Shown: piece after piece, positions 8,608-46,619 of the stretch
How the letters are laid out: each line of letters opens with the position of its first letter
Position numbering within the stretch: the stretch's first letter is position 1
NCBI GenBank assembly: GCA_036172245.1
Contig: JAYWIR010000001.1
Span: 310,001-374,000, forward strand
Source of the DNA: Raillietiella orientalis
Taxonomy: Eukaryota
DNA length: 64,000 nucleotides
Reading direction: 5' to 3'
Program-made: the position numbers and the translations under genes
Notes under the pieces: model-generated
What the model was told of the DNA's origin: nothing
Seen by the model: only the letters and a program-made list of their open reading frames with translations
Databases searched by the model: none

Positions 8608-11572
8608 CATGGTTACCTGAGGGTCATTTCCGCGAGTGCCGCGCTAAGTAGCAGCTCCATGACGATTGCGGTAGCGGCGGCGACACTTTCCAACGGGGTG
8701 ACCTCCCAGAGTTTCAGCAAGGAAGAGGGCGAGGAAGCCAACGATGCAGATTCCGCGTTCCGCGCGGAGAGAGGGAAGGGATGCTGAAATATGCATTCTC
8801 CGTGGCTCGACGCGCGCGCGGGCAACGCGAAAAAGGGGACTGCTTCCGGAGGCGCAGGGCAGTGTACCAACAAAAAAGCACTACCACCTGATAGGCGCGG
8901 CGCTCCGACGCTCGCCGGGACGTTTATGGTCCGTGAAGAATGAGTCCTCGCCGCCGCAAAAACAAAGGAATAATGGCGCAGTTGTACCTGTGGCGTCCCT
9001 CTGCGGTGCCCCCTCTCCCCACCCACTTTCTGCAGCAAACTTATGATTGCTGTGGGAGCGCTAGGGTACTATATGGCTACTTGCGTGCGGAGAAGCTGGA
9101 AGTTTCCGCAGGAAGGCGACGGAGAAGTCAGTCAGTCTTCTGCGCTTTATTTTATTTTATTTTTCATTCAGATTCAAAAAGAAAGTTGGAGGGCGGGTCG
9201 GAAACCGTTTTTTTTTTTTTTTCACTCGCAGCCACTTCCGAGCGCGGACTGATGCGAAGGAACGTGCGCTCATGCACGTGCCAACGCGCACGCGCGCAAA
9301 CAAAAAAAGGGGGGAGAGGAAGGCGCGCGCCTCTTGAGGCAGGGAAACACTTGGGAAGCCGCGCGCGGTTCGTTGCGCCCGAGCCACCACCTGACACGAG
9401 CGCGAGAATTCCACAGTTCATTTACCTCCTTGCATAGGAAAAGGGGGCAAGGAGGAGGGGGGGGGGATTTCCTCGGCAAGGATGCGGGAAAGAACGAGGA
9501 GGAGGATGGAGGGCAGCAGACAGGACCACGTGTGCCATGCTGGGCGCTCTGGGATCCAGCGAATGCTCTGGAGCTAAGGGGGTCTCGGACGGGTCTGCTG
9601 GGCCTTTCGCGATGCTGCCGCATCCCGCAGTCGTCAAGGCGGGTCGCCTGGCGACCCGCTCTCACCCTCGTCAAAGTTGACCTCCGTTGGCGCGACTATA
9701 GCGCGCCTTCCTGCAGCCCCCACGCACGTTCGGACGGGGCGAGGCGGAGGGACAGCGAGCAGTTGCCCTTCCGCTTAGGGTGGCGGCAGCTTCATCCCAG
9801 GCGGGACGCGCCTGTCCCTCCCTGCCCTCAGCGTGTAAGGAAAGGAGAGGGGTGGGCGGGTGGTCTCGGAGGGATCGCACACGTTCCTCCTGGCTTGCGG
9901 GGAAGAACAGGAAAGGGAGGAGGAACAACGGCGATAACGGAGGAGACGCCTTCAGGGCCTGAGGACCGGCCGTAGGCCTGCTGGACAGGCGGGAGCAGCA
10001 CCGCCTCTTCCTGCCCCTTCTGATCCCTGCCCTCCTCCCCTGAGCAGCGTCTCCCTGCGGTTCCTCCGCTCCACAAATGCTGCACCCCTCTTACTGGGTT
10101 CGCGGCACTTCCGAGGACCCAGGGAGCGGGAATAGGAGCTCAGAGCCTGTGGCGAAAGTCTACCGCTCTTTAAGCAGCTGCCCGTGCACGCATCTCTTCT
10201 ACGGGCCGTGAAAACTCGATGGAAACGACCTCGACCGTCCGCTGCTTCCCCGTTGGGAGCAACTCATCCTGCCTGTCCTCCGGAGAGGCGAGGGTGGCCC
10301 CTTCCGTAAGGAGGCTCGTCTCCAGGGCGAAGCCGGGGAAACGCAGGAGGCGACGACCGGTGCCGCGCTGCCCACGAGTGAACCCCGGGGAAGCGCTGGC
10401 GGTCACCTCGAGACGGAGACCTCGGCAGCAGCGGTGCCTGGTCGGCCGGTGCCAATGCAGCGCAGAAGAGATGAAAGGCAAACACAGCGAGACGAAAAGA
10501 GAGGGGAAAACAAGTCCCCGCCCCGTTATTCCCAGAAGCGAGCCCTAGAGGGAGCGGAGTATCCGCTCCTTGCGGGACCGGCCCTGCTCGCCACCGCCGC
10601 TCCTCTCCTCTCCTGGAACGTCCGCCACGAGACCTCAGCCAGCGAGCGCCGCCGCCAGGCGATCCCCCTCACCCCCAACGCCTCACCGGCAGAGGCCGGG
10701 AGGCGAAGCAGGAGTAGGAGAGAAGCGGAGGAGCTGGTCGGCTCGTTCCCCAAAGGGTGGCGGATATCGCCAGCGCTCCGGAGGTCGGAGGGTTTCGCAG
10801 GGCGGAGGAGGACAGGAAGCAGCTGCCGCCGCATCGCCCTCTCCCAAGAAGCTTCCCGGTGGAAGCCGAGGAAAGGGGGAGACGGATACGCGGCTCCCCT
10901 CCTTCCGGTCGGTGCCCGCTCGACGGCGAGCACCGCGCGCGCCTACTCTCTTTGCCGCGGCGGCTGCACACCTGCGGAAGGGTTGAGCTGGAACCGCCGG
11001 AAGGAAGTCGTGAAGGAAGAGGGAGAGCTGTGAATGAGGTGAGGACCGTTCGAACGGACGCTCCCGGCCTTCACCCTAGGGCAGACCCCCCTCCCCCTTC
11101 CCCGAACTTTTCCAGAACGAAGGAACTGCCTAGATTCCCTGCTCCTGCTCTTTCGAGCAGCAGTGCTCCCCGATTTTTCCTTTCCTTTTTTTTTTTTTTC
11201 CCGCGGGAGGTAACCAAGGTTACGCACGCGGACGAAGGCGAGCCGTCGTCAAGTTTGGTTACCTCGCGAACTTGGAGCGTCCAGCGTAATGATCTTGCCG
11301 TTCATGGAGGGCGGCGTTTGGGTGGCGGAAGCGGGGTCGGGGAGTTGGGTCTGGGGGTGAAAGCGAGCCCCTCCCCCCACACGGGGGCCGGCGGCAGTGA
11401 AACGAGCGACGCGCCTCGGCCGTTCGGTCCGGTTTCCGCGCATGTGCGTTGCGTCTCCGCCGGGCGCTGCTCCGAGCGCTCGCGCGCAGCGCTGCCTCGC
11501 GGCTCTCGGCGCAGGCGACTGGGCCGTGGGAAGAGGCGGGGAAGAGCGGTGGCGACCTCAGTACGGTTCGGC

Positions 11573-11660: not shown

Positions 11661-11933
11661 GTGACCCGGGAGAGAACGAAGGATGAAAGCTGCCCGTCCC
11701 CTCATCCGCACAAGCGTTCCCCCCCGCACGTGCTCCTACAGGAGATCCTGTCCCACATGGGGCCTCACCCCATGGTCGTGTGTCCCCCGGAAGGCGGATA
11801 TTGGATCGACGGCAGCGACAACGACTGCCTGACGGACAGCCACGGCAACCCGCTCGTCCCCAGCCCCACCTGGAAGGCCAAGTTCGAGACCGACGACACC
11901 GCGCAGTGCTACAGGAGGCACTTCCTGAGGAAG
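11661..11933 (+). CDS. RAP1GAP: Rap1GAP exon 2
   Basis: ttccag acceptor, GTGAGT donor. Encodes ...GPHPMVVCPPEGGYWIDG...KFETDDTAQCYRRHFLRK, matching the Rap1GAP N-terminal region (GGYWI, YRxHFL motifs). Confidence 0.93.
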
Positions 11934-13384
11934 GTGAGTCGCTCCCCCGATCCTCTCGGGGAGCAGCCCCTCCCCGCGTCCTTTCCTTGCTCTTTCGCGT
12001 ACCCTGCCCAGGCTTCCTGCCGAGAGCGCGAGTGCGTTGTCGCGACCTGGTGGGACGGACAGGTGCGACCCGAATTTCTCTTCCTTTCGTCTCTTCCCCC
12101 CCTCCCTCCTTCTCTTCTTCCTCCTCCTCCTCCACCACCCGTGCAGGAAACTGCCGCCGCCGCGTCGGCGGGCAAGCCGTTTCCCTCTCTCTGTCGGGGT
12201 TGCCCCGGCAACGGCGGCGAATGATCCTTTTTTCCCGTGCGCACTTTCTCCTCCTTTGTCCCGCCGTGCACGCATCCGCCGGCACCCTTCGCGCGCGCGC
12301 CTTTGGCGGTTCCCGAAGGCGACCGACCGTCGCAGCTGCCTCTTCCTGGGACGCCGCTCGCTTGGGGGCGCAGCCTTCCGTCAGGACGTCCTTACCTGGG
12401 AGGGGAGGGGGGCCAGTAGTTCGCTTTGGCGTTGGGGAGAGGTCCATGCTGCGGGACATCACAGTGTGTGTGTGGGGGGGGGGGAAGGGGGGGGACTATC
12501 CAGGCGCGCTGCACCCTCTGTCCTCTGGTCGCTGCCCTTTGTTTTCGCAGTGGCCGCCGATCGCTCCGCGCGCCCCCCTTGGCGGCGTTACTTCCGTGCG
12601 CTTCGGCTTCCGCGTGGCATCGCGGGTGAGATCGCGCGCGCGCCCTCACGCCACGCACTGGGCGCTGCCGCTTCCGTTCCTCCAGCGGAACGCTCAGCGT
12701 CTGCACACGTGCCCCTGCGTTCCGTGCGCGGGCCTCGTCGTTCTTTGCGTGAGGCGTGACGCCCGAGCGCAGCGTCGCGTGATGCTCCCGGCACCGGGGG
12801 CGGCCACAGCAGCGGCAGCAGAGGCAACGGCGGCGTCTTTTCGCTGGTCGCCGCGAGGTGCGCCGTTCCGCTCCGATCCTCGCGGCGAGGGGAGCGAGAG
12901 CCGAGCAACGCAAGATGGCCGCTGCCGCACCTCCCCCCCCCTTCCCTCTCCCCCTCCTTTTTTGATGGGTGTTCGCGTCCGGCGTGCGTGTGCGTGCGTG
13001 CACGCATGCGCGTCGGTGTTTGTCCGCCTCTCTTCCCCCCGACTCCCCATGGACGGCAGGCGCTCGCACCCCTCCTGGCGTGGTTCCCGAGGCCACGTTT
13101 CCGAGGGAGGGAGAAGTTCGCCGCCTCCGGGTGTCGCCGTTGCGCAACGGCGAGCCCTGCCCGCCCGCAGGGGCGCCGCTCGGTGTGGCGAGAGGGGCGA
13201 AAGAGCGAAACGCAGCCCGCTCACCCGACAACCTCTTTTCCCAGCCCCTCTTGGAGTCGGGCGGCAACCTGCCGGGGGGAAACGGGCTGGTCACAACTGG
13301 CGCGCGCGCCCTCGCGTCACCCCTGCCTCCTCCGGCGTCAGCGCAGCGTTCTTCTGCCTTTCATCTCCTTCCCTCCTCTCCCAG

Positions 13385-13567
13385 GAACACTACGACTTCC
13401 TGGGCACCGATGAGGTCCACGGCGCCGTGCTGCTTTCCCTCAAGACCGAGGTCTTATCAGGTCAGGTATACATGAGAACGGTACTCCGCGTGAGTACGGG
13501 AACGGTCCACGAACTCATCCTTGCTGACAGCCTCGGAGAGACTCCCACTCCAGGAAAGATAGCACGG
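13385..13567 (+). CDS. RAP1GAP: Rap1GAP exon 3
   Basis: cccag acceptor, GTAAGG donor, phase 0/0. Encodes EHYDFLGTDEVHGAVLLSLKTE...TPTPGKIAR (dimerisation region). Confidence 0.92.
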
Positions 13568-16500
13568 GTAAGGCCAAGGTCCAGGATGCTGCCTGGTGTT
13601 TCTCGCGGGAGCTCGGCGCGCCCGTTTCCATGCCACGACGCGCGAGCAGTGGCTGCGCTCGCCTCGGCTAGTCTGGCAGGCTGCTGCGTCTTCCCTCCCC
13701 GCCCTTCTGCAGGCAGCTCCTTCGTCCAGGGAAGCAAGGGCGGAAGCGCGCGGGTCCCCGACCGCTTCCCTGCAGCATCCTCTCTCGGCAGGGGGGGGGG
13801 GGCCGCTGCGCCCTCTCCCCCCCCCTTCCAACTCCTTTTGCCGTGTTTCTCCGTTCCCGTTCGGCCACGCGTGTCTCGGCCCCCAGGCGGTTTTTACCCG
13901 CATCGAGCTGTGCGGCGGCGGCGCAGCAGCACTGCAATGGGCACGCCCACCCGTGCGAGTGCGTGGGCGTGCGTCTCGCGCAAAAGCCCTTCCCGTTCTT
14001 TCCCGCCCTCTCTCACCGCGGCTCCTCGCCCTCCTTGGGTGGGATTGACGGGGCTCGCGGACACTTCCGTCTTCGTCTCTCCTTCCCCCCCCCGAGACCG
14101 CTACAGGTGGCGCGCTCGTGGGCACTGTGGAGGGCGAAGCGGCGGCTTCCTCGCAGCCTTTCGCGCGGACGCCACTCCGCGGAGGTGTTCGTGCGCCCCC
14201 GGCCCGTCCGTTCATCGCCCGGATGCGCGCGCGAAAGAGGTCTGGTCACCTACCGCCTTCACGTCCGGAGCGGTCTCCAGGCGAAAGCTGGAGACCGATC
14301 GTCTGCCGATTCGTGCATCCCGCCGTGGACGCGAAAGTCCGGATTAGACAGCTGGCAGGCAGGTCCACGCGTGGGTCTCTCGCGGAGCCCGTGGAAACGG
14401 GAAAGGGGGGAAGAGGAACAAGAAGAAAAGAATTCCTTTTGCGGCGAGGGAGGCGCCTCTGCGGGACGGGGCTGCCGCGGCGTTCCTCGGGAGTGTTCGG
14501 GCGGAATCCTCCGGGCTTTATGGCTCCGTGGTGCTCGCGGCCTCACGGAAACGGATGTCTGTGAACTCGGTGGCCGTTGTATCCTCTTCCTCGTTGGCGG
14601 CAATTATGGCCGCCCCGCGTCATCGCGTTTTACTGCTCTCGTCTCACTCTTGTCGAAGCGGCGTGCCGTTCGCATGGAAAAAATCACGTTTCCGGGGAAA
14701 CGTCCGAGTGCCCGGAGCCTCGGCTGCTGCGAGCCGCGCCGGACCAGCACGGGCCCACCTTTCGCGCGCGCGTTTATCCTTCTTGCGAAATCTTCGGCCG
14801 GTGCTTTCTGGTGATGATAGTCGAATCTCCATTCGAATGGAAGCGTCGCGAATCGGAGGTGGAATCCCACGTCGCATGACCACGACCCTGACCTTTTGTG
14901 GACTGCTACGGTCCTTTGCGAAAGGCTTTTTCTTTTCTTTTCTTTGGATAAGTTTGAAAGTTGCCGCGCGCGACGGTTTGGGACCGCCGTAACGGCCGAG
15001 TTGGGGCCCCTGCAGCTGCCACGGTGCTCTCCCCGATTCTCACGCGCAGGGCAACGTTTCTGCCCTTTTAGGGATGAGCTTCGGCAGCGCTCGCTGCCCG
15101 CGCGGCAACGTGCGAGATCCCGTCCGCCTCTTCCCGTTGCTGCGCGACGGCTGGGGACCGCCGTAACCGCAGCGGCGTTCTGCTGGAACGCGTAGGACGG
15201 CGGCGGTGTTCTGCACCGTTGCTGCGGAGGGATGTTTGCGATAGACGCAGACACCGTTGTGGTCCAGGTGTTTGTCGTTCCAGCAGGCCGGGGTCGCAGT
15301 GCACTCCCGGAATTCATCGCCATGGCACCGGAATGGCTTTCGCCGCGCGCGGACCGAGAAACGAACACCTCCTTTCGGAACGCGAATTAATGGACTGCTC
15401 TCACACCGCTTCCCCCCCCCCCCCGGCCCGAAAATTACGCACTGATGAAACGCGTTCGTTAATTGAATTGATTACGTAGATAATGGCAAAATTCCTGCCC
15501 CGTACTCTTCGCGCGTAATTTGCAGGTTCTTGTGATGATTGCGTATTCAAATTGCCTTCGTGCCCCGGTTCACGTGCTGCTTGCATCCGAATGTCCTCTA
15601 AAAGGGCCCGGTGCTTCAGAGCAAACGTGGACGGCCCCACTGGGCGGAGTGGATGCTCGCGGAACGGCGACGCGCAGCATCAAAAGGGCCGAATGCGTTC
15701 GGTGTTTCATGCGCGGTGTTTCACGGTCGTTTCCTCTCGGGCGGGGTGCATCACCTCCGTGTTTCCAGCTGGGTCGTGTGTGCATTGCACATCGCTCACA
15801 TCTTGGATGCGCCTTCATCCTGCCCTTCCTTCTTTTGATAGGTATGTACGTGGCGTACAGCGCGTAGTATCTTTTTTTTTTTTTTTTTTTCTTTTTCTTT
15901 TGCGTGCTTCTTAAGCGGAAGTGCGAAGGGGTGTTGCCGAGTCGAGAGTCCTTCCTTTTGTGTGTTTCGGTTGCGTCTGTCGTGACACCGCGATGTTCGG
16001 AAGCGCTGCATCCCACGTGAAAATGGTAATGGTTTGGCTCAATTAGCTCAGGGCGGCATCTCATGACCTCTCAGCTCGAGTCTTTTGTGTAGGCGCCGTG
16101 TTGCCCCGGTGCGCATGGGCGGGGCGGCGTGTTGGGCTCACACCGCGACGTGTGGGTAACGAATCGAAAGAGAGGTAAGAAAGGACCGTGGATCGGGAGC
16201 TTTCAGGTTGCGGGGAGCTGCTGACCTGCATTCCGGATCGCCCGCCCCGTGGCTCAAACTCGGTTCCAGGGTCGCGAGCAGCGGCGGCGCTCTGCTTCGG
16301 TGCCGGGTCGCGCGCGCGAGACGTTTTCCCGAAGAGACACCCGTAGGACAGGCGAAGGACGCGGCGAGCATCCCTTCCACCCCCTCTCCCGTCTTCGCCG
16401 TTCCTTCGGGGTTCACTCGGTCTGGGGCTTCCTCGCGTTCGCTTCCTGGAAACGCGTCACCGCGGCTCAAGGATCCGTTGCTGGCCTGGGGGCATCTTCC

Positions 16501-17440
16501 GCTAATGAGGCGCGCTTCAGGTGCGCACACTCGTGTGCATTGTCCATTGTAATCCGAGGTCGTTCCTACGGAAGGCCACTTGGACGATATTCGCCGCTGC
16601 ATTCCGAAGAAGCTGAGGGTCGAAAGCCACCTCGACTTTGGTTCCAGCTCTCCCCTTGCAGGCAGGCATCCTCCGTCTCCCTTTTCCCCTCGCTTCCTGT
16701 TTCTCCCTCGTTTTGGCCACTCCTTCTCATGTTGCTTCCTAAACTCGTTGCTCCTCTTTTTCCTCTTGCTCACAGGAACGCGAGGGGGGTGGTACTCGGC
16801 TGTGGTGAGGGTAGAGTGGGGAGGACGGAATTCTTCCCGTATCTCGGTCCAGTTTTCCTGTGCGGTTTTTCCCGCGCTTTGTGCGCCGAATTTCCCGCCG
16901 GAAGGTGCGCGTCCACCACCCGCCTAGCGGCGCTTTCGTTCGCAACTCTTTTTTTGTCTGGATCGGACGGAGTGGGTGGGGTCCGTCCCGTTTTTTTCGG
17001 GACCTTGCAAGCCGTGGTCGGCGCTCAACTTCCGGAATGGAGACCCGAAGGCATCCCCGGTGCTGCTGCTGGCCTCTTCGTGCGGTTGGCCGGTGAGCTG
17101 CGCATTGGGCGATTCACATCCAGGGAAACCAATCGGTCGCGCGGGCAGCGCGCCCGGAAGGGACGCCGGTCGAGAGAAAGCCACACAGGTCGGGCTCCTG
17201 TGGAATTCCCTCCGTCACTCCTGGGGAAAGCGAGCGGCCGACTCCGCTTTGGGGTTTTCGGCCCGAAAGGGGGGGGGGATCGAAGCTCCCGTGTGGCCTG
17301 CACGGGATGCGTGTACTCGTGCGCGCGCGCCCTCGGACGCAGACTCGCCTCGTCGTCTTCTGCAGGGTGTTCTGCCGGAGGACGCTGCTGCAGCTCGGCA
17401 CCTTCTGGAGGCTTCCGAAGGCAGGAGCGAATTCGATTTT

Positions 17441-18100
17441 CACCCGGATTTCGCCGGGGCGTTTATTATGAAATAAACATTTACAAAGACGTGCAGTGGC
17501 TGGACCATTGCTCCAGCCACGCACGAAGAAACACAGAGCCTGCCGGGTCACCGGTTCGCAGACCGGTACGGTCCACCACGGCAGCAGGGGGAAGGGGGAA
17601 AAAACAAAAAACAAAAGAAAAAAGAAAAGAAAAGTTGGGAGGGTAAGGGAAGGGATCACAGTTGCTGGTGGGGCCGTTGCATCCTTTGCAGGATGCCGGC
17701 AAGCTCCTTCTGTATTCCTGGATCCAGGTGGGGCCATCGGGACGCTCTCCTCAGGAACTGGGAGGCTGGCTGGATGGCACCCTGGTCGTGTGGTCCTCCC
17801 GTAGCCTTGCTCCAGGCGGTGACGATCCCGCGAAGGCAGCACAAAGCTGCTAACGAGGCCGAAGGGCGTCGGCGACGAAGAGGGCTTTCAGAGCGTCCCT
17901 GGGGTTGCCGCAGGGGATTCCGATGGCCGCGGCAAAGCGGAACCAAAGGGGCCGAAGGGCAACACAATCCACTAGCAGGTGGGGGAGGGACTCCCGTTCC
18001 CCACATCTGACGCAATTGGGGTCCACCGCTCCCCAGGTCCAGTGGTGTCGGCGGGCGTTGCAGGGGAGTCCCCAGTGCTGCAACAGGAATGCCGACTCCT
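17441..18100 (-). mobile_element. LINE 3' end (zinc-finger C-terminus plus 3' UTR)
   Basis: Encodes NCVRCGERESLPHLLVDCVALRPLW (CCHC zinc finger typical of L1/Tx1 ORF2) and RWPHL, then a T-rich tract, stem-loops and AATAAA. Confidence 0.8.
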
Positions 18101-19499
18101 GCGAGGAGCGAATTCGACCCCACGCGGGAACGGTGCGAAGAGTCGGCCGCTCTTGCAGGGGAACGCCTGGAAGCCTCTTGCGTTTGCGCGTCCACGCGGA
18201 CGAGGCGCCTGCGGCGAGTCAGTCGCTGTTGCAGGCCGACTTTCCCGCAAGGGAGCGCCCCGCTGTCTTCGCCGTTCCCCGCAGCCGTGCCTCCCGGATG
18301 ATTGACAAATTCGGAGCTTGGAAGGATCGTATTTGTTTCGTTTGCTCTCACCCGGGCGCGGGACGGCGGCGGCTTGCAACATGGCCGCCACTGTCTCCTA
18401 CCGCCGTCGCTTCCACGGGCAACCGCGGACCTGCTGACGGTGGACTTGCGTGTCCTTGCCGGGTGTGGGTGAGTGAGGTGGAAGCGCCCTCGTGCCGCCG
18501 GTGACCTTCCCTGGTCTTCCGGATGCTCCGACTTTCGCCTCGAGCGCTCTTGTCTGCGTTCCGGGGAGCTTTCTTCGCAGATCTCACCTCCCCGCGAGTC
18601 GGCCATCTCTGCGGAAGAGCTTGGACTGGATCTGCCGCCGTCACCGCGCGCGCGCGCTCAGGAGCGTGGGGTGCAGGAGCAAGGTCGCGCGCAGGTGGCG
18701 ACGCGTCTCGCGCCGTTACCGCGGCGACGCTCTCCCGTTTTCTCTCTCTTGCGTAGTCCGTTTGTTGTCGTTTCCGCGGCGACGCTTCTATTTATAGATT
18801 CCCCCCCGCCGCCGCCGCCGCCGTGCGACTGCGCGCGTAGCTTTGTGTCGCCCGTGCGCTCTCGCCGCGGCGTTCCTTCCGGTGGTGAAGAAGAGGGACG
18901 AAGGGGGGTGGTCAGCTCAGCTTGCCCGCGCGGGCGGCAGCGGGTGGGGGGGAATCCATCTTCTCGCCTCGTCTGCGCGCACGCCGCCTGTCGAGGTGCG
19001 CGACCCGTCCCTTCCTGCCTGCCGCCTTTCCCCCGGCGAGCAGAGCGGGGAGCGCACCCGCCGACCGGAAGTGCGGACGGCCCCCTTCCTACGCCGGGCC
19101 GTTTCCGGCTCTCGCCGTCGGTGCCTGCGGGTCTTTTCCTTTCCGCCTTCCCTCCTTCGTTCGTCGCCTCGGGGCAGAGCCGGCCGCTCTTTCCCGCTCC
19201 CTCGCCTTCCTTCGCGGGTCCACCTCCAGCTGGCCAAGGGGCGTGACGCGCGCGCCTCGCGCGTCCCCTCCGCCCGCCACGCGACCTCCGAAACAGTGAC
19301 GTACCCCTTGACCCTCCCCCCTCCTCTCGGAAGTCGGGGAAAGCGCCTCCTCGCCATCCTGGTTTTCCCTGTGCCGCACCCTCGCACGACGACTAGCGGG
19401 GTCGAGCCGTCCCTCGGGGCTTTGCGTGACCAGGACGGTCCGTCGAATTCCCCTCGCAGCAGCTACCTTTCCCCCCATTCCTTTCTCTCATTTTGGAAA

Positions 19500-19900
19500 T
19501 AGGACTCTTTGATGTCCCCCTCGGGAGCCACCTCTCCAGAGTGTCGGAAGCGCTCTGCTCCCTTGGGGGTTCCCGGATGCATCGGGCGCGAGCTGGAGGA
19601 GGAGCCCCATCGAGCTCACGTTCTCAGAGAGGTCTTTCTCACTCTCGAGTTCATTAGTGGCTGCGGCCTCAGGAAGCTGTCCTGTAGGGACGCGCTTCTG
19701 ACGAAACGATTGCTGTAGGCGCCGTTGACTATCGAGGAGCGGTAGATCCTCGATGGTCCTTCGGTTTGAACCCGCGAGGGAGCGGCTCTCTCGTGGGTTC
19801 CTTCTGAAGGCAACCAGAGAAGGGGGGGTTCTCTTGTGGGTTCGCTTCCAAGCGTAGAAGAGGAACGCACTCCCTCCTCCTCCTTCCGAGGTCACCCTTT
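19500..19900 (+). mobile_element. Dispersed repeat copy B (interrupted)
   Basis: The cacctctccagagtgtc and ccaagcgta...gaacgcactcc blocks match other copies. About 230 bp of extra sequence lies between them. Confidence 0.5.
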
Positions 19901-20182
19901 GTAACTAACACCCTTCAAGTTACGGGGGGTGACTCTGTCTTCTTAGAGCAGCGAAGTGGTGCTCGCTGCCCTCAGGGTTGACTACCACCTGCCGTGGAAG
20001 GGGGGAGTAAGGGTGCTGGGGAGGGTAGCGCGCCGTCGACAGCCCGCGTAAGGTTTCTTCCCTTCTCCGCTCGCCCGTGATGGGTTGCCGCTTCCTAGCG
20101 AGGGGCGCGCGCCGGCGCGAGGTCGCTGTCCCTCCCAGGAAGTGTGATCCTCTGATCTTCTCCCTTTTTCTTTCCCGGGAAG

Positions 20183-20421
20183 ATTCTGAACGAGAACCTC
20201 AGCGTGGACCGCTTCGTCCCCGTGATCTTCCCGCAGGCGTCCGACCTCATCGTCGCCTACGACGAGCACGTTCTAGTCAGCCAGTTCAAATTCGGCGTCA
20301 TCTACCAGCGGTACGGGCAGACGACCGAGGAAGAGCTCTTCGGCAACCGCCACACGAGCCCCGCCTTCGAGGAGTTCCTCGACATCCTGGGCAAACGGGT
20401 GAAGCTCAAGGATCACAAGGG
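20183..20421 (+). CDS. RAP1GAP: Rap1GAP exon 4
   Basis: Encodes [29 protein letters not shown]...[21 protein letters not shown]...FEEFLDILG...KLKDHKG, the start of the Rap_GAP domain. AG/GT boundaries. Confidence 0.95.
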
Positions 20422-20481
20422 GTCGGTGTCCCTCGTCGCCTGCGTCTCCGTTTAGCAGCCGCCCGGGGATTTATTCTCCAG

Positions 20482-20633
20482 GTACCGCGGAGGCCTCGAC
20501 ACCCAGTTCGACCAGACAGGGGAGGAGACCATCTACGACCGCTTCCACGACCGGGAGATCATGTTCCACGTGTCGCCCATGCTGCCGTACACCGACGGGG
20601 ACTCCCAGCAGCTCCAGAGGAAGAGGCACATCG
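20482..20633 (+). CDS. RAP1GAP: Rap1GAP exon 5
   Basis: Follows a 60-bp intron. Encodes [13 protein letters not shown]...[26 protein letters not shown](G). Confidence 0.96.
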
Positions 20634-23600
20634 GTAGGGGCGACCCCTTCCCTTCTCCTGCGTCTCGTCCGGGGGCTGCTGTGCCATCTTCCGCTTGGCT
20701 CCCGCCTTCCGTTACGCAGAAGGGAGGCCCGGGACCTGCACTGACCCCGAGGGTGGAATTGCGGCTCCTCCGATGAGCGCCGACCGAGACGAGGTCTTGC
20801 CCAGGCAACTGCCGTTCGCCCCTCGCGCACATGCCGTCCATGGGAGATCGAGGCTCCTGCCGGCACTCCTATCCTCCTGCGGGATGGGGTGGGAACCCGC
20901 TTGCGGGGTTACCCTGCCGTCGTCTCGCGCCCGACTTTCGTCCCCCACCCCTCATCCTCTCTGCTTGCGACCTCTGCCTCCATTCCGCCTGGGCGCCAGG
21001 GAAGTCTCTCCGCATAGGGAGGAGGTCGCAGTCCCCGCCATACCTGTGAAACCCATGGCAGCGCCCTCGTCGCGAAGCACGCAGCAGCGGCTCCACTTCC
21101 CGACGGCGGCCAAAAAAAAAAAACAAGCGCTTTTGTGAGCGTGTTCGCGGGCCGACATCCCCCTTCCCCCCCCCCCCCTCGCTGACGTCATTCGGTCGCA
21201 TTTCCAAGGGAGAGGCGCTGCCGCGGGCGAACGGGCGGATCCCAGAGGGCTGCAGTCGCAGGGCGAATGCGCACAACGGGCACTTCGCTCGAGATGGCGA
21301 CGACACGTTGCGTGCAGTCGAGCGCGAAGGTTTCCTCGAGCGACGTTTCGTCTCGGGTCTTCTGGAGGTCAAGTTCGCTCCAAGACCCGGAGGAGGAGGA
21401 AGAGGAGGTGGAAGAAAGGAGGGAGGGAAGGAGGGACAGAAGGGGAGGAAAGGAGGAGAGGAAGGAAGGAGACCGGACGGGAGAGCAGAGGAGGAAAAGG
21501 GTGCGCAAGTCTCCCGGTCGTGGGAGCGGTCGTCCTCTCCCGTCCGGTCGAACGGGTATCGAGTGGAGGAATGGCCCCGAGCGACTCCTTGTTTCCCGCG
21601 CGCCTCCTCTTCCGGGCGCGGGGGTGGGTGCATGGGGGTGCGACAGAAGAGGGCGACAGGAGTCACAGCACCCCGCGCGCACAGGGACAGATTGCCGAGT
21701 GAGCGTCGGGTCGGCGCCGAACGAAGGTTCCGCCGTGACATTCTTTTCGCCGCCTTCCGTCAGCAGCGACCGCTGCACTTCCGGGAAGAATGTGGCGCGC
21801 CTTTTTTGCTTTTGTTTTTTTTTGTGCCTGCGGCCGGTGTCGGCGCGCCTCTGGCTTGCCGGTCTTTGCGGGTGAGGCGCTGCGGACTTCTCGGCGCCTC
21901 ACCCTTTCTGCGCACTCGCGGTGGCGTCGGCATCGTCCGCTCCTTCCGAAAGGCGGGCGGCCTCCTTCCCACCGCCTTCTCCAGCCGCGACCTCCAGTAT
22001 CCCACCGAAAGAAGACCGGTCATCCTGGCAGCGTTCTGTCCCGCCCTCGCCCTCCTGGTTCGCCCTCGGGCGGGTCAGCGGTGGGTCGCGGGTCACTCTT
22101 CAACTCCCGGCGGATATGGCGTCGGCATCAAGCTGAAGATCGCTAGGAGTACCCTGCCTTTCTCCGAGCCAAAGGGTGAGGCGTCGTTTCTTGGAGCAGG
22201 AAGCCCCGCGCCTGATTCTACGGCTCGTCTTTCACCTGGGTCAGGCCTTAGCGCGGGCGCGACAGACTTCTCGATGGCCTCCTGCGCAGAGAAGCCGGGA
22301 AGTGCCGTCCGCGAAAGACGCCGTCGGCCGCGTCGAGGAGGAGGGGAGGAGGAGGAAGCGGGCCTTCCGCATGCGGAGTCACGTGCTTTGGAACGACGTG
22401 CGGGCGGGACGGCTTTGAGAAAGCGGCCGGTGTCATGGTCACGTTCGGCGGGGCGAAAAGCTATCGCTCCGAAGAGACCCCGCGGGCGCGGGCGCTTCCC
22501 GAGCGGCTCTTCGGCGATCGGCAGACGCGTTAACAGGCCGTCTCGTGCTTCCCCCTCCCCCTCCGCTCGTCGGTTCGCTTCCCACCTTCCCCTCGCCCTG
22601 CCAACCCGAGTGTGTCCGACGGTCTGGTGACCTCCGGCCATTCTTCTTCATGCGGGCACCTCTTCCCGGCCTCCGTGGCTCTTTCCCGCCTCGCGTCGTT
22701 GCTCGCATCTGCCTTTCGGGCGAGGCACCCCACCGTTACGACCTGGGCGCGCACTTGGCATGTCGGTCTGTGGTGGCCTCTGTGACGTTTCTCGCCCCGA
22801 GGTTGAGAAATTCGTCAAATGCTCCTTTTTTTTTCTTCTTTAAATGGGCGTGGAGGTCGATGTTGACGCAGCAGCCGCGAGAACTCCCGGAGATCTCGGC
22901 ACTTTATAGCGCGGACCGTCTTCGGCCGACTCCTTGCAGGCGAACTCTCCGCCCTCTGCGAAGATGGCAGCACCATGGGTTCGACCAAGGAAGGGCGTTC
23001 CCGGCGTGGAAAGGAGGGGGCGATCCTGCGCTTGCCCTTCCGGGGCAAGGAGGCAGATTATTCGCGGGATGAAGTGGGGCGTGAGCGTGGACGAACCCCC
23101 CTCCCCTCTCGCTTCCACACGCTCCTCCACACGCTGCCTCGTCGTGCTTTTCCGGGCGTTCGCTCCCCCAACCGAAAATCTTTGCGGCGAAAGCGCGTAG
23201 CAAGCGGGAGCTTGGGGCTCGCCTTGGTTCCTCTGCGAGCACACATTCATCAGAGTGCACACATCCGAACACGTGCTCATTTTTTTCTTTCTTTCTTTTT
23301 CTCCTGTGACTCTCCTGTGTCGGGCGCTTGGGCGAGTTGGCAAAGTGCGCATTATTTTGGGGTTCCCCCCTCCCCCCCCCTTCCCCCGCGCATAATAAAT
23401 GCCTGAGGTCGAGCCGAGTCGGCGATGCGTCGTCGTCACTTTCGGCCGGAGAAAAGGAGGCACGCAGCTTCCTCTGCCGCCTCGGAGATGGCGCGGGGCT
23501 CGATCGAGAGTGCAGCGGCAACGCCATGGCTCTCTCACCCTCCTCTCCCTTTCCGATAGTGTCGTCCAAAAGCGTGTTCGCCGACGTGCAGATGTGGCAC

Positions 23601-24194
23601 GTCATCTTTGCAGCGCCACAGGGTACGGGAGGGAGGGTGGTCGAGGGATTCGCGCGTCCCCGTTATGTGCGCACGTGCTTGGCGGAACGGACATCGGAAA
23701 CGTCTCCGCACTCCTTGCGGTGGTTAAAGCAAGTAATTAAAATTCAATTATGGCTGCTGCTGCACCGTGCGTTCTCGTGGCGCCTCTCTTCTTTGCCTGG
23801 AGCGTTTTTTTTTCCTTTTTTGTTTTCGTTTCAGGCCGCCGGTCGCCAAGAACGCGAGTTGCGGGGTGGTGCTGCAAGGCGAGCGAGGCATTCCGAAATT
23901 TACATCTCGCGTCTGCAGCCGCTTCCAGTGATCCTGAGCTGTAGACATTTTCTTACATCCCCTTCAGGCCGAAAAAATAAAAATAAAAAAAGATGGAAAT
24001 TTCGGAGGTTTCTCGCGTTTCCAAGTCGCTTCCAGTTTCGCGAGGAATGCTGTTGTGGGTGCCGTTACGGGGGTGGAAGAAGAGTCCTCGCGTTTTCATC
24101 TCGACGTCGGAGCACACGCTCGTCCCGACCGTTGTGACCACCATGCTCCCGTTCGCCCGCTCTCCTTGTCCCTTGGTTTGCAGAAAAGAAAAAA

Positions 24195-24264
24195 AGAGAG
24201 AGAGAGAGAAGAGAGAGAGAGAGAAGAGAGAGAGAGAGAAGAGAGAGAGAGAGAAGAGAGAGAG
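24195..24264 (+). repeat. Compound (GA)n microsatellite with 15-nt higher-order period
   Basis: gagagagagagagaa units. Confidence 0.95.
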
Positions 24265-24329
24265 ATGAGCCGCCGCCTCGGGGAGTGAATTCCAAGCACT
24301 CTGCGCGCGTGGTCCTGACCGACCGCTTG

Positions 24330-25070
24330 AAACCGTTGCATCTGATTGGTGATGGTCTTCTTCGTCTCATCTCCCACATGCTTCCGCGGCCAAACTAACC
24401 CTTGGAAACCAAGACGACGGACGAAGACTCTGCTGCAGCGAGCGATGCTGCCTGAATGGCGTTCCACCAAGTCGCCGCGGCGGAGCGCCCTCGTCATCCG
24501 GGAAGCGCTTTCAGCCTCTTCCGAATCTTTTCTTGTGGTGCGCCAGAGGGCGCACCGGCTGCGCTCACAGAACCACCGGCACTCTGCGGTTTTCGTAAAC
24601 GCAAACAGACCGGCCGGCCAGAAGCGCCGGAGCGTTCTTGCAGACGCGGTGCCCGCCCGTTTCGTCCGCCTGTTAGTCAGGTCATCTTGCAGCTCGGGCA
24701 GCGCTCCTCCCGGCAGGCCCAAGCGACCTCCGAGCGGGAATCTCTTCGTTGCTTGGGGAACCTCTCTTGCTCGACGCTTCGCTCCTCCGGTAGGGTCGCG
24801 GGCTCTTCGCGCCACCGGTCTGCTGGATCTCGATTTCGACGAGGCGTCTTCGACAGCGTCGTTGCTGCCGCGTGACAGTCTTGAAGAGGAGTCTTCGGAA
24901 GCCGCACAAGAGGTGCAGGCTTAAGTGTGGACCAAGAGTGGATCCGAACAGCAGGGCGAGCATTCGAACGCTCCAAGCGCTGAGCTGGACTTTCGGGAGT
25001 TCTTCCAAATCTTCGCCGGCGTCTGCGTACCCATCGCGTTCAGCCCGCGAGCGAAGAGTCAGCTGACTCG
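24330..25070 (-). mobile_element. Highly decayed non-LTR RT remnant
   Basis: Frameshifted motifs in RT order: GPHLSLHLL/LLFKTV, LQDDLT...TLRRF..AGL..KT, KIRKRL. Confidence 0.35.
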
Positions 25071-25874
25071 CCCTTCTTCCCCCGACTGCCGCCGATGAGG
25101 GATTCGGATGCAGCAGGGAAGGTGGGGGTGCGCTCAGCATCTGCGCGAGAACGAGCATCTACGCCTCCGCTGCGTCGCCCGTCATCCGCGGGCGTGCGGA
25201 TGCCGTCTGGCGTGCTGCATTCCTTCGCGCCCCTGCCAGGGAATGAAGGAAGCTGCCCGCCCGTTCCCAGCTTCCGAGCGCTCCTCCTCGTGGACGGGCG
25301 GCGAGGGTCTGGGACGAGTCTTTGGCGGTTCGGTCATCCGGGGGAGGGGAGCGTGCTCGCGTTCTCGCAGCAGCAGTCCGGGGGGCAGCGCGCGGAAGCG
25401 CCCGGAGAAGACGTCCGTTCTTCAGGAGGCGCCTTGCTGTGGACGCTTTCGAGCTGCCGTCTGCGTCTTCGGCACGCGTTCCTCTACGAGGCGCGCGCCG
25501 AAGAGCTTTCGCCGCCCTCCCTGGCAAAGCGACGCTTCACAGATCCCGAGAACGTCCTCAGGATCCGTGAGGGACTGCCGTTCGTGGCTATGTTTTTTCC
25601 CGGTCGTTCGCAAGCCCCCATTCAAGCGAGTATCACGTGTGCTACTACTGTATATACTACTGTACATGGGCCTGTGCTGCGCGCGAACAGCCATTCGCAT
25701 TGGCAGCTATGCGGCTGCGGTCTCTGCATGTGGTGATGCCAAGCGTCGTGGGTTTGAATCTCATCCGGGAAAAAAAATTGACGCCGAGAACGGGTAGGTG
25801 CGTCGTGGGGTCGATTCCCCACCGCAAGATGACGCTGTTTGACCTGGGTTCGCTTCGGGTACGGCACTGTTTGA

Positions 25875-26300
25875 CACCCAGTCACGCCGGGACGTTTATT
25901 TATAGAAAATAAAGATACATGTCTGTGGCAGGACGTTTGATCCTGCCACGTTACTCATGGCTACGAAAAGGAACCCGCCAGGAACTGGCGCTCAGACCAG
26001 TGGGGTTCGCCTCGGCAGCACAGGGAAGGGGAAACGAACAAAAAGAAAAATAAGAACACAAAAAACATACTGTCAAAAAGGGGTGGGGTAAGGGATCACC
26101 GTGTGCTGGAGGATGTCCCCTGCATCCCTGTAAAGATGCCGGTCATTACCTGTTCAAAGACTTTCAGATGGGGCCACCTTGACTGTCCTCATGAAGAGGA
26201 TGGCAGAATAGATGGCGTCCCTGTCGTCCTGGTTTCCTCTGGCGTTGCTGCTCCATGCAGCCACGGTCCCTCCCCGTGGGCAGCAAAGTGCTTCCAGGCG
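25875..26300 (-). mobile_element. LINE 3' end, same family as 17441-18100
   Basis: Shares the RWPHL-coding region, the gatccctt motif, the T-rich tract and the 3' UTR hairpins with AATAAA. Confidence 0.75.
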
Positions 26301-26354
26301 TGAGGTACTGGTGGAAGTCGGAAACCGGACAGCATCCGGTTCCCGACTTGACTG

Positions 26355-26800
26355 TCCGGGATTGGAAGCGGACCTTCCGTGGTCTCCTCATGAATCGAGG
26401 AGTTTGGAGCTCCCAACCGCTCGTGCAAATGAAGGATTTCCTCCCTCTTCCTTCGGGAAGAATCCTTCATCGCGTGCTATGGAGCTGGTGGTTGATATCC
26501 CCTCGGCGGGTCGCCTCTCCTGAACGTAAGAAGCCTCTGCTTCCTTCAGGAGCGCCCTTCAGAGAAATTGGGAAGCGTCCCTTCAGGGTTGCCTACCAAG
26601 CGTAGGAGGAACGGATTCCTCCCTCCGGGGTCCCTCCGGGTTTATCCCCTAATTCGAAGGGTTCCATTTATCCCCTGGTGGCATGGAACAGTGTCAAATA
26701 GCTTCATGAGTCCCCCTTAAGGAGCGAACGGTTCTTCAGCACACTCCGAGAACCAAAGAAGAAAAAAAGAAAAGCAGGAGAAGCAGAAGAGCCCAACAGT
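26355..26800 (+). mobile_element. Dispersed repeat copy C
   Basis: Encodes ...SERFFSTLREPKKK, similar to the GEKxTKFFF linker motif of L1/Tx1 ORF2. Homologous to copies A, D and E. Confidence 0.65.
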
Positions 26801-27061
26801 GACAACCCACCATGCTAGTAACATCCCGTAGTTACGATCTCTTCGTGAGGTCGCTGCTAACCGTTTGGGAAAAGCAACAGCGGTCATCCCGTATCCCACC
26901 CGGTTCTGGTGCGCTTCCGCCAAGTGGTGGCGCGAGTGTTCTTTCAGTCGTCGTAAAGCCATGTCTCGTCCGGCCATTTCCTTCCCTTTTCATGCGGACC
27001 CTGCGATTTGACCCGGACTACTCACCGTGCCCCCATGATCTGACTTTCAGGTGTGTTTTAG

Positions 27062-27188
27062 GTAACGACATCGTGGCCCTTGTCTTTCAAGATGCGAACA
27101 CGCCTTTCGTACCAACCATGATTGTCTCCCACTTCCTGCATGCCTTTGTGGTCGTTCAAGTGATTGAACCCAATTCACCGAACACCAG
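27062..27188 (+). CDS. RAP1GAP: Rap1GAP exon 6 (catalytic Asn-thumb, RKRHIGND)
   Basis: tttag acceptor, GTAAAG donor. Encodes (G)[41 protein letters not shown](R). Phases match the flanking exons. Confidence 0.96.
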
Positions 27189-29266
27189 GTAAAGACACCA
27201 TCGTAGTCGCCATCGCATGCGACCGCCACTCGATTTTCGTCCAAGTGAATGTTTGTTGTTGTCGTCGTTTGACTGATTCTTGTTGGGAGCCACTTGAATG
27301 TGCGCCGTTCGTGGAGCCTTCGCCAGGGAAGTCGGCACGCAGGCACACCGGTGTTCCAGAGCAGCCTTCTCGTTGGAAGGAGGTGCGGTCGTGTGCTTGC
27401 CAAACGGAGGGGTCACGCCTTCGCAAGGGAAACAGCGCCATAGCAGAGTGTTGCTGGAATCCATTGCAGTGAGGCATGGCAACCCTGGCTGCTCGATGAT
27501 AGGGAGCGAGGTTTCCCGCCTCTGTCGCCAGCGCCTCCTCCCCTTCCGTGAAACCGAATCCTACCTCTTGTGCGTGGTAACCATGAACGGCGCAGAGCGG
27601 CAACAGGGAGGAGGCCTTTGCTGTTCCTCATCACCTGACCACCTCGGTTTCAAGGATCCTCGGGTTTCACGGTTGCCGATGATCTGCCGATGTCCAGAAA
27701 TCGAATCTGCTACCTTTCGCCGCTGCTCGACTTTCGCCTCCGTGCTTCAGCTGCGTCTTCGTCTTGTACTGATGACGTAGAGATGGGTTTTCGTCGTCGT
27801 TTGCTGCTTGCAGTTGAGCGAAGGTGACGGTCAGTTCTGTTTCGCACCCTGAAGCAGTTCGTACGGGTGGTCGAATTGCTATCCCCCTTTCCCGGAGTCC
27901 TCCTTTCTGTGTGTTTCTGGTTCTTTCTTCTGGTGCGCGATTCCTAATGGATGTGTTTCCGGTGTCGGAGCTGCTCCTGTGTTGGACTGTGATGATTCGC
28001 CAATTTTTTTCTCGTGGGTCACTCGTCTGGTTCATCCCACTCGTAAGGTACGCCTCTCGTAGCTTTCTTGGGTCAAGTTTCCCTTTTCTCTCTATATGTA
28101 TATGTATTGCCGCAGGGGACTTGGGTTACACATATGCTGTCCTCCCCCTCCCCCCAATTTACATGTGGCGGGTTTCAGTCAGGTTACTTTCGACGTGCGG
28201 AATAGGGAAGGACCTGTGTTTCTAATGTGTACATCACAGAGTTCTGTGGGAACGCTCCTGCAGATGTGGTTGCGGGTCAGGGGGTGCGCTATCACTGTCA
28301 GGTGGCCCATAAAGAATCAGCTGATTGAATGCCTAATTGCAGTGAGCCAATTAAGCTGCCTTAAGGAACCCGGTGAGAACAGGCTCAATGATTACACCTT
28401 GCATCAGAGAAACGGAGCCCATAAATGGGTCCGTACGGTTGCTGAAAGGCGTTCTCATATCCTTCGCTGGTTTCCTGTGCTTGTGAAAGCCAGCAAAAAG
28501 GCTCTCCAAGACCTTTGTAGATATCTGATGTTTTTCCCTTCATCTGTGGTCGCATTCCTCCGGAATCTCGTTTCTCCTCTTCCTGATTTTGCTGATGTGA
28601 TCTCGCGGTCCTTTTTTTTTTTTTTATTGTTATTATTATAATTGTGATTTCAAAAAAATTTTTTTTTTTGGATTGCTTCAATAAGTCAAAACAATCCAGA
28701 CTTGGTCGACAGACCAAGGTGACACGCCGCTTCCGGGTGGCCAAATCCCTCTTCCCTCCATACGTTCGGGGCTTCAATGGGCCCAAGCGCCCGTGAAAAC
28801 CGGGTGGCGTTTGCATGCACGAAACGTTTTCAAGCATCAAGAGGAATTCGTTTGCCCCAGCAGGCCGAATGCTGGAACAAAGATGGTACTCGATCACAAA
28901 GATATGTAGGATACGGGAGTATGGATTCCGCGTCCGTAACAGTAGGCGTCGTTCCAAGTAAGCGGATGTTGGAGAAAGGTGTGGCTATTTAGTGGTTTCT
29001 TTTTGGCATTTGGTTGTTATCCGTGGCACGATATTGTCTCGAGTGCCCTTCGCATCAGCCAAGAGATGCCCGAGAAGAATGCTACGTGCATGTTCGTGGG
29101 TACTTTGATGTGTGTGCGTGGTTTCTGGAGCCTTAGGTTGTTGTTCTTGAGAGATCAAAACTAGGAACAGAAATTTTCTGGAAAGTTCTTTCTTCGCGGA
29201 TGAATCTGTGACGATAACTCAGGTTCCAGGGGAGATTCTCTTCAAATTTTCTTTCTCCCATCGTAG

Positions 29267-29432
29267 ATACAAAGTGTCCATCACGGCAAGAGACGACGTC
29301 CCGTTCTTCGGCCCCATGTTGCCGAATCCTGCAGTTTTCAGAAAGGGACCTGGGTTCCGAGAATTCCTGCTGACGAAACTGGTAAACGCCGAACTGGCCT
29401 GCCTTAAAGCGGAAAAATTTCACATGATGGGA
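29267..29432 (+). CDS. RAP1GAP: Rap1GAP exon 7
   Basis: Encodes [57 protein letters not shown] donor. Confidence 0.96.
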
Positions 29433-29485
29433 GTAAGTCCTGCATCCCCATGTCCCGAAACGGTTGCAACCCAATGGCCATCCAG

Positions 29486-29719
29486 TGTAGAACGAGGATG
29501 TCGATTTTTTCCACATTGGTGTCCACCCTGCGCCAAAAGACGTTCGAATTCTCCGGTTTCATGCTGGAGTCTCCCAAGCCGGACATGGGACAGTCGAATC
29601 GGTTTCTGAACCAAGTGAGAAAGGCGCTGAGTTCCAAGTCGCGCAATCAGGACAGCACGTCGGTGCGTCGCCTCTCCAGCTGCAGCGGGGGATCTCCGAA
29701 TGTTGACAGCAGCAATCAC
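29486..29719 (+). CDS. RAP1GAP: Rap1GAP exon 8
   Basis: Follows a 53-bp intron. Encodes [15 protein letters not shown]... (the RTR end of the GAP domain). GTAAGG donor. Confidence 0.88.
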
Positions 29720-29773
29720 GTAAGGCGCAATGAAAGCTCACTCTGGTCCCCACCTCGGAAACGTGCCGTCTAG

Positions 29774-29841
29774 ATGCGGCTGTCGACCTCCTCGTCCGGG
29801 AAGGTAACTTCGCAGGAAGTTACGTCAGAAAGAATGTCCCT
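29774..29841 (+). CDS. RAP1GAP: Rap1GAP exon 9
   Basis: Flanked by two 54-bp introns (tag acceptor, GTAAGT donor). Restores the phase needed for exon 10. Confidence 0.78.
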
Positions 29842-29895
29842 GTAAGTTCCACCGCCTGAAAGACGCTCTGCTTTGTTACGCTCGTGGTTGCGTAG

Positions 29896-30124
29896 GTTGA
29901 TATTGTCCGAGTCGGATGACTCCTCTCTGAACAGCGTGGAGATAGAAAGGTGCGTTCCCGCAGGGCAGGAAGACCACAGCACTGCCGACGTCATCTCCAA
30001 GAGCCCCCCGACGACCTCATCTTCCATTTTCGATTTCGACAAAGCAAATTCAGAGAAAGAACGGTATGAGGAAGAGATCAGCCAGCTGAAATTGGACAAA
30101 CTGGATCTTCTGAAACAGAATGTG
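29896..30124 (+). CDS. RAP1GAP: Rap1GAP exon 10
   Basis: Encodes SESDDSSLNSVE...EEEISQLKLDKLDLLKQNV (start of the C-terminal coiled coil). GTAAGA donor. Confidence 0.88.
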
Positions 30125-46445: not shown

Positions 46446-46619
46446 TTAAAGACGCTTTTTTTCTATGTGCTTTGTACTTATCGAGAGCCTTACTCAGGGA
46501 GCAACGACATTGGAAAAATGTTCGCAGAAACTACGTAGACAAACGAAAATGCGATTTCTTTTTTTAAAGGCCGACCTCACAGAAAGATCGTTGTTATCGA
46601 CCTAGGATGGTGAAGACCC

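Follow-up and report, generated by a model that had tools for sequence, protein, structure and literature searches.

The window analysed here, 64,000 nucleotides of the Raillietiella orientalis contig JAYWIR010000001.1 (assembly GCA_036172245.1, positions 310,001 to 374,000), carries two diverged copies of a module made up of several RNA hairpins. The sequence evidence supports the view that the module, read on the minus strand, belongs to the 3′ untranslated region (UTR) of a non-long-terminal-repeat (non-LTR) retrotransposon of the long interspersed element (LINE) type. We consider it probable that the module, the last ~150 nucleotides (nt) of this UTR, is a tail of the stringent type, i.e. 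one that is recognized by the reverse transcriptase (RT) of the element itself. Coordinates are those of the window.

The module occupies positions 17441-17587 in copy 1 and 25875-26021 in copy 2, both on the minus strand, and consists of the same series of hairpins in the same order. Its parts, together with two features located upstream of it in the UTR, are as follows.

17540-17584, minus strand: hairpin 1 of copy 1, an outer stem CUGCC/GGCAG around an apical stem ACCGGU-N6-ACCGGU
17584-17580 with 17544-17540, minus strand: arms CTGCC and GGCAG of the hairpin 1 outer stem in copy 1 (CTGCC/GGCGG in copy 2)
17567-17550, minus strand: apical stem of hairpin 1 in copy 1, ACCGGT-ctgcga-ACCGGT (ACTGGT-ctgagc-GCCAGT in copy 2)
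17490-17525, minus strand: hairpin 2, a 4-bp lower stem CGUG/CACG and a 9-bp stem GUGGCUGGA-N7-UCCAGCCAC
17520-17496, minus strand: the 9-bp stem of hairpin 2 in copy 1, GTGGCTGGA-N7-TCCAGCCAC
25949-25925, minus strand: the 9-bp stem of hairpin 2 in copy 2, GTGGCAGGA-N7-TCCTGCCAC
17461-17478, minus strand: hairpin 3, GUUUAUU-UCAU-AAUAAAC, which contains an AAUAAA signal at 17462-17467
17467-17460 (copy 1) and 25900-25893 (copy 2), minus strand: AATAAACG
17441-17458, minus strand: terminal hairpin, CCCGG-N6-CCGGG at 17443-17458, and the last two UTR bases, UG
17599-17634, minus strand: T-rich tract, which separates the upstream UTR from the hairpin module
17679-17696, minus strand: upstream UTR hairpin S0, GCAUCC-UGCAAA-GGAUGC

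All motifs named in a preliminary description of this DNA are present on the minus strand where it had placed them, and the minimum-energy fold of copy 1 is essentially the architecture given there. The outer stem of hairpin 1 differs between the copies by one U-A to U-G change and requires a 1-nt shift in copy 2. In the apical stem, a C-G pair is replaced by U-A, which is compensatory, and a U-A pair by U-G. In hairpin 2, all 13 pairs form in both copies. Its 9-bp stem carries a U-A to A-U exchange and is prolonged by the 4-bp lower stem (CGUG/CACG in copy 1, CAUG/CAUG in copy 2), where a G-C to A-U exchange gives hairpin 2 its second compensatory pair and the module its third. The pattern CGTGGCWGGA-N7-TCCWGCCAC has four matches (two sites on two strands) against 0.05 expected. 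In both copies, the AAUAAA pairs as 3′ arm with an upstream UUUAUU to form a small hairpin. The terminal hairpin of copy 2 is CCCGG-N5-CUGGG, a G-C to G-U change. The loops were said earlier to differ in sequence at a constant length; the shared N7 length of the 9-bp hairpin holds, but the loops differ only in part, at 3 of 7 and 3 of 6 positions. The upstream hairpin S0 retains its pairing in copy 2 with two G-U changes and has two broken pairs in copy 3 (a third fragment of the family described below), and the covariation term is unfavourable in this region. The upstream UTR of copy 1 also contains a perfect 12-nt palindrome, CCTGGATCCAGG (17720-17731, minus strand), which is not retained in copy 2. 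A near-match to AATAAACGYCCCGGCG at 8913-8928 was rejected as a copy.

The conserved pairing exceeds what most of the controls produce. Folded singly and compared with dinucleotide shuffles, copy 1 has a z score of -3.88 (none of 200 shuffles as good) and copy 2 of -2.49 (6 of 200). RNAalifold applied to the two copies on the minus strand gives a consensus of -43.3 kcal/mol with 34 pairs, against a mean of -16.8 in a column-shuffle control that preserves gap and conservation patterns (z -7.3, 0 of 1000 as good). In a plain MAFFT alignment, the stems of the preliminary description, taken together with the 4-bp extension of hairpin 2 and the UUUAUU/AAUAAA hairpin, pair in 92.8% of cells in register, compared to 34.8-44.9% when the 3′ partner is slid by one to three columns. 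Three double changes retain pairing in register (C-G to U-A in the apical stem, U-A to A-U in the 9-bp stem and G-C to A-U in the lower stem), and at most one such pair appears in any slid version. There is no broken pair in hairpin 2 or in the apical stem. The cells that score as unpaired in the outer stem and in the AAUAAA and terminal hairpins are due to 1-nt indels in the alignment, and each of these stems forms in copy 2 when its sequence is read directly.

When pairs are defined in copy 1 only and carried over by a naive alignment, 30 of 36 are kept in copy 2. Permutations that redistribute the letters of copy 2 among columns sharing one copy 1 letter keep 20.3 on average (standard deviation 2.4, maximum 29), and none of 20000 reaches 30. 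Paired columns differ between the copies in 13 of 70 cases (19%) and unpaired columns in 40 of 89 (45%; Fisher p 6e-4), which corresponds to identities of 81% and 55%, so that stems are better conserved than loops, the opposite of the outcome by which the preliminary description would have counted as refuted. The covarying structure claimed at the outset, with selection on its pairing, is thus supported by three compensatory and three wobble changes and by the conservation of stems above loops, all of it in two sequences.

The changes also bear on which strand folds. All three one-sided changes in the named stems (outer U-A to U-G, apical U-A to U-G, terminal G-C to G-U) yield G-U pairs if the minus strand is read and A-C mismatches if the plus strand is, and the consensus energy is -43.3 on the minus strand versus -37.9 on the plus strand. 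This wobble-pair bias agrees with the anatomy of the insert that carries the module.

The two copies are homologous well beyond the hairpins. Positions 17848-17441 and 26292-25875 are 65% identical over 431 nt (blastn E 1e-32), and nhmmer gives an E-value of 1.7e-32; the homology covers ~430 nt in all. Identity is even, at ~63%, across the upstream UTR (67/107), the T-rich tract (33/55) and the hairpin module (96/150 aligned positions, 64%). Within the window, nhmmer and a covariance model run with filters off find the module in copies 1 and 2 only; the next-best match, at 18.3 bits, comes from the same palindrome read on the plus strand. Scans of other contigs returned five loci in genomes, one in metagenomes and none in viruses, and in these loci the typed motifs alone match, as expected by chance.

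Copy 1 has the boundaries of a retrotransposed insert. The features that define it and its relatives in the window are listed here.

18104-18117, minus strand: 5′ target-site duplication of copy 1, TCGAATTCGCTCCT, an exact 14-mer
17423-17436, minus strand: 3′ target-site duplication of copy 1, TCGAATTCGCTCCT
17437-18103, minus strand: copy 1, a 5′-truncated LINE fragment of 667 nt with the end of open reading frame 2 (ORF2) and the whole 3′ UTR
17853-18103, minus strand: ORF2 C-terminal remnant with a Cx2Cx7Hx4C knuckle, CVRCGERESLPHLLVDC, at 17964-18014; the stop TAG follows at 17850-17852
17437-17849, minus strand: probable full 3′ UTR of copy 1, ~413 nt, which begins after the TAG that closes the knuckle frame
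17437-17440, minus strand: A4 of copy 1, located after the last UTR base and before the 3′ duplication
25871-26340, minus strand: copy 2, a 5′-truncated LINE fragment, nearly all 3′ UTR, with an approximate 5′ edge, located within a copy (B4) of a repeat family that we call B
43261-43779, plus strand: copy 3, a fragment of this LINE family with the ORF2 end and the upstream UTR, which adjoins repeat B at the T-run

The 14-mer TCGAATTCGCTCCT is repeated 14 of 14 bases at a distance of 681 nt, and these are its only two matches in the window, where 0.05 would be expected by chance. Because these perfect duplications bound positions 18103-17437, copy 1 is a 667-nt insert. Its boundary is confirmed by copy 3 (nhmmer E 6e-43 to copy 1), whose homology starts just downstream of the 5′ duplication. 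Since copy 3 shares the frame-ending TAG, the 3′ UTR is probably ~413 nt long and copy 2 is probably nearly all UTR, with the proviso that every copy in the window is truncated. An alternative in which the segment from TAG 17850 to TGA 17656 is frameshifted coding sequence was dropped, as the TAG common to copy 3 makes a UTR likelier.

Copy 2 interrupts a B repeat. Its flanks are colinear with uninterrupted B elsewhere (1186-1234 then 1252-1362; 44063-44179 then 44206-44341), and the right flank resumes at the GTCAAC of B (1 of 500 shuffles scores as well). The target-site duplication of copy 2 is short or decayed (GTCAA...), uncertain, and is not used as support here; a long one (~45 bp) was rejected for want of support on the left flank, where 275 and 476 of 500 shuffles reach the same score. 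Copy 3 has repeat B at the T-rich tract in place of the hairpin module, its LINE homology stops in the tract exactly where B starts, and a search around copy 3 and B together revealed no target-site duplication. Each of the three copies starts at its own point of the element, and copies 1 and 2 end alike in ...GGGTG. The duplications, the 5′ truncation, the ORF2 zinc knuckle and the insertion of copy 2 into a repeat all uphold the earlier assignment of the module to a LINE 3′ UTR.

The first 250 nt of copy 1 encode ...LLQHWGLPCNARRHHWTWGAVDPNCVRCGERESLPHLLVDC..., a Cx2Cx7Hx4C knuckle. An HMMER search of 1.84 billion representative proteins with the ORF2 remnant gives nine matches at E up to 0.001. 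Four of them (P0005, P0008, P0009 and P0011; E 3.5e-6 to 8e-4) contain Pfam zf-RVT, one (P0007) contains RNase H followed by the same knuckle, and another (P0006), without a Pfam family, bears the source name 'Tick transposon'; P0003, P0004 and P0010 were discarded as repeat or low-complexity artefacts. The named relatives come from tick and clover and are therefore distant. In the ESM Atlas, the cluster ranked first is zf-RVT ('zinc-binding in reverse transcriptase'), with a score of 0.97 and 191 of 256 features in common. The label 'L1-type' given to the element in the preliminary description is not established, as no copy contains an RT or endonuclease domain: neither RVT_1 nor an endonuclease domain was found in the 144 (18 + 126) open reading frames (ORFs) scanned out of 235 in the window that encode at least 110 amino acids. 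Because all copies are truncated, these missing domains say nothing about an intact element. The relaxed, poly(A)-dependent type of L1 is not a good fit to the two inserts, whose tails are A4 and A0 and whose target sites, GGGG/TCGAATTC for copy 1 and AGTCAA/... for copy 2, are unrelated to each other and not T-rich.

The 3′ terminus of the element is sharply defined. The UTRs of copies 1 and 2 end in ...C(C/U)GGGUG, followed by A4 in copy 1 and by none in copy 2, so that the reported lack of a poly(A) tail is accurate for copy 2 and needs qualifying for copy 1. The distance from the last A of AAUAAA to the last UTR base is 21 nt in copy 1 and 20 nt in copy 2. Cleavage and polyadenylation 20-21 nt after an AAUAAA is textbook spacing. 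In the mechanism that we propose, the element's own AAUAAA would set the 3′ end of its RNA 20-21 nt downstream, exactly where the DNA copies stop. The ORF2 protein would bind the structured tail in a 'stringent' recognition, as in eel UnaL2, zebrafish ZfL2, R2 and SART1, and target-primed reverse transcription would begin where the UTR ends, so that a few A at most are copied. New copies would thus carry 0-4 A and not a poly(A) tail.

A more elaborate version of this mechanism is speculative, and we regard it as doubtful. A zinc-knuckle, L1-like LINE of a GC-rich eukaryote may have fused two signals into one multi-hairpin 3′ domain. In it, the AAUAAA, enclosed in a hairpin, would determine where the RNA ends, and the hairpins on either side would cause the RT to begin cDNA synthesis precisely where the UTR meets the poly(A). 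Polyadenylation would then be confined to the RNA and absent from the DNA copies, and the T-rich tract might serve retroposons as a site for swapping 3′ modules.

A number of observations weigh against recognition of the module by the RT. There are only two module copies, so all covariation counts amount to one pairwise comparison, and the stems were picked with both sequences in view. A within-pair shuffle control, which is weak with two rows, is not significant (61 of 500 reach the observed value). The 6-bp core UUUAUU/AAUAAA of hairpin 3 is identical in the two copies and displays no covariation. A long-range stem that closes the module (UGCCG-GGYG with CGYCC-CGGCG) is an alternative to the outer and terminal stems, and the two folds are of equal energy (local versus long-range, -43.7 versus -43.6 in copy 1 and -34.6 versus -35.9 in copy 2). 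The strand argument consists of three wobble pairs, a one in eight chance, and the plus-strand consensus fold, with a z score of -6.2, is nearly as good, as palindromes lead one to expect. Copy 3 has neither the hairpin module nor a 3′ end. The Pfam zf-RVT model does not match the window's own peptide, the read-through frames upstream of the three copies contain no RT, endonuclease or other Pfam family, and neither nhmmer nor the covariance model finds a short interspersed element (SINE) with the same tail in the window. Finally, there is no evidence of transcription; protein binding, the start site of cDNA and the use of the AAUAAA are inferred.

Another explanation is that the module mainly serves 3′-end formation: it would present or mask the AAUAAA and set cleavage or terminate transcription, with no role in RT recognition. 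The invariant AAUAAA, which lies in a hairpin in both copies 20-21 nt before the end of the element, speaks for this, and all three copies are antisense to probable host genes, as expected if the sense orientation truncates host transcripts. A poly(A) signal alone, however, leaves three further conserved upstream hairpins with compensatory changes unexplained, as well as the 0-4 A in the DNA copies, and we hold this explanation to be unlikely. The two roles are not mutually exclusive. The hairpins might also have been inherited from a common ancestor and have survived in two copies by chance, with no selection on pairing. The small number of sequences, the within-pair shuffle result and the invariant AAUAAA hairpin speak for this, but at 36% divergence random substitution falls short of the 30 pairs kept, paired columns differ less than half as often as unpaired ones, and three double changes retain pairing. 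Chance survival is already disfavoured and, in our estimate, quite improbable.

The palindromes could instead act on DNA or on the plus strand, as the A-tailed end of a plus-strand retroposon fused to the LINE or as inverted repeats bound by a protein. Downstream of the module, the plus strand has an A-rich run (the T-rich tract in reverse), the consensus fold of this strand is far better than that of its shuffles, and repeat B abuts a T-run in four places, copy 3 included. Against this stand the duplications of copy 1, which enclose the ORF2 end, the T-rich tract and the hairpins as one unit with the hairpins at a fixed 3′ end, and the fact that copies 1 and 2 share this end while their 5′ ends differ. 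All three wobble pairs fit the minus strand only, and the covariance model finds no separate plus-strand copies in the window, which makes a function on DNA or on the plus strand very unlikely. The suggestion that the module is a self-cleaving ribozyme or other catalytic RNA, also raised in the preliminary description, has nothing in its favour beyond the structured, conserved nature of the RNA, and found no support. Rfam gives no match at gathering score across the whole window, and at E up to 10 its five weak matches within 15000-30000 overlap neither module copy (17441-17590 and 25875-26030); no family, ribozymes included, matches. The hairpins are simple ones that follow one another, a nested or pseudoknotted core is not evident and, to our knowledge, known retrotransposon ribozymes sit at 5′ ends. 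We regard a catalytic role as extremely improbable.

Recognition by the element's own RT has precedents. In R2 and SART1/TRAS, a structured 3′ UTR is recognized by the element's own RT for target-primed reverse transcription. These elements are site-specific, unlike the copies described here, which occupy two unrelated target sites (GGGG/TCGAATTC and AGTCAA...), and at gathering score there is no Rfam match to the R2 element anywhere in the window. Stringent LINEs are described as the majority of LINEs, with an ORF2 protein that binds a 3′ stem-loop (PMC4176376), and the UnaL2 hairpin is likewise bound by the ORF2 protein (PMC1636434). Eel UnaL2 and zebrafish ZfL2-1 and ZfL2-2, which belong to the L2 clade, resemble the present element, in these accounts, in a conserved stem-loop close to the 3′ terminus of the RNA, in a stem kept by compensatory change with variable loops, and in DNA copies without long poly(A); binding of the cognate stem-loop by the ORF2 protein is a feature described for them (PMC4176376, PMC1636434). 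Compared by description, the present module has several hairpins instead of one and contains the AAUAAA, and the element has no short 3′ terminal repeat, no SINE partner in the window and a zf-RVT-like knuckle in its ORF2 tail.

Within the L1 clade, PMC3472496 describes a lineage with a 3′ hairpin confirmed by compensatory mutations and lists L1 families without a 3′ repeat (5 of 15 from green algae, 9 of 233 from flowering plants). The stringent-type 3′ ends described there include those of the monocot L1 lineage with ZmSINE2/3 and of Chlamydomonas L1-1_CR with SINEX-3_CR. As is probable for the present element, these L1s are of the kind with a C-terminal zinc knuckle, and like it they have a conserved 3′ hairpin with compensatory mutations, but according to this source most of them still end in poly(A) and they are defined by a SINE partner (PMC3472496), whereas the tail of the copies here is 0-4 A and the window yielded no partner. 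A LINE end that is structured and tail-less is thus of a known kind, even in the case of an L1-like element. The surprise implied earlier at a structure in place of reliance on poly(A) was overstated, as structured 3′ tails are the rule for most LINEs (PMC4176376) and are known in some lineages of the L1 clade (PMC3472496).

Copies 1 and 2 lie between an exon for a Rap-GAP dimerisation domain (11687-14344, plus strand) and an exon for the Rap_GAP catalytic domain (29151-29606, plus strand). The former is an 886-codon open frame with a match to the dimerisation domain at E 4.8e-14, and the latter matches part of the catalytic domain at E 1.4e-10; a word-indexed protein search with the Rap-GAP ORF returned no relative, and the ESM Atlas yielded nothing above threshold. 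The two frames are probably one gene whose intron of ~15 kb holds copies 1 and 2 in antisense. Copy 3, on the plus strand, is flanked by Inositol_P exons on the minus strand (41458-41790 and 48966-49553) and is likewise antisense. The two fragments of inositol monophosphatase match profile positions 193-242 (41458-41790) and 93-142 (48966-49553), and are probably exons ~7 kb apart with copy 3 and two B repeats between them.

Copies of repeat family B are ~70-75% identical to each other and have a T-run and an internal duplication of ~290 bp. They are found at the following positions.

806-1362, plus strand: repeat B
43761-44341, plus strand: repeat B
46618-47046, plus strand: repeat B
26342-26800 with 25688-25845, minus strand: repeat B
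19776-19920, minus strand: repeat B

B3 and B4 are extended on the upstream side relative to B1 and B2. The family may represent a retroposon in its own right or else another 3′ module that is attached at the T-rich tract. Its interpretation as an antisense, tRNA-derived, A-tailed SINE was dropped, as the homology of B3 and B4 continues upstream of their T-run, and a tRNA scan of the window detected no tRNA-like gene. A 473-codon open frame on the plus strand (16225-17643) crosses the hairpin module and the T-rich tract and has no Pfam family. It is probably not coding, stop-free frames being common in this G+C-rich DNA. The G+C content is ~60% over 1-26 kb and falls to 30-32% over roughly 52-58 kb, and simple TA/CA-rich sequence is located around 33-36 kb.

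Taken alone, two decayed copies without an intact element are ordinary repeat annotation. If confirmed, recognition of the module by the element's RT would make this LINE a well-delimited example of a stringent 3′ tail, whose insert has an exact target-site duplication and whose 3′ terminus lies 20-21 nt downstream of the element's own poly(A) signal. The module would provide a compact RNA (~150 nt, four to five hairpins) for binding and retrotransposition assays. The ORF2 tail looks L1-like, and L1 is a group in which poly(A)-dependent priming is usually assumed; the finding would be relevant to the hypothesis of an ancestral stringent recognition that became relaxed later.

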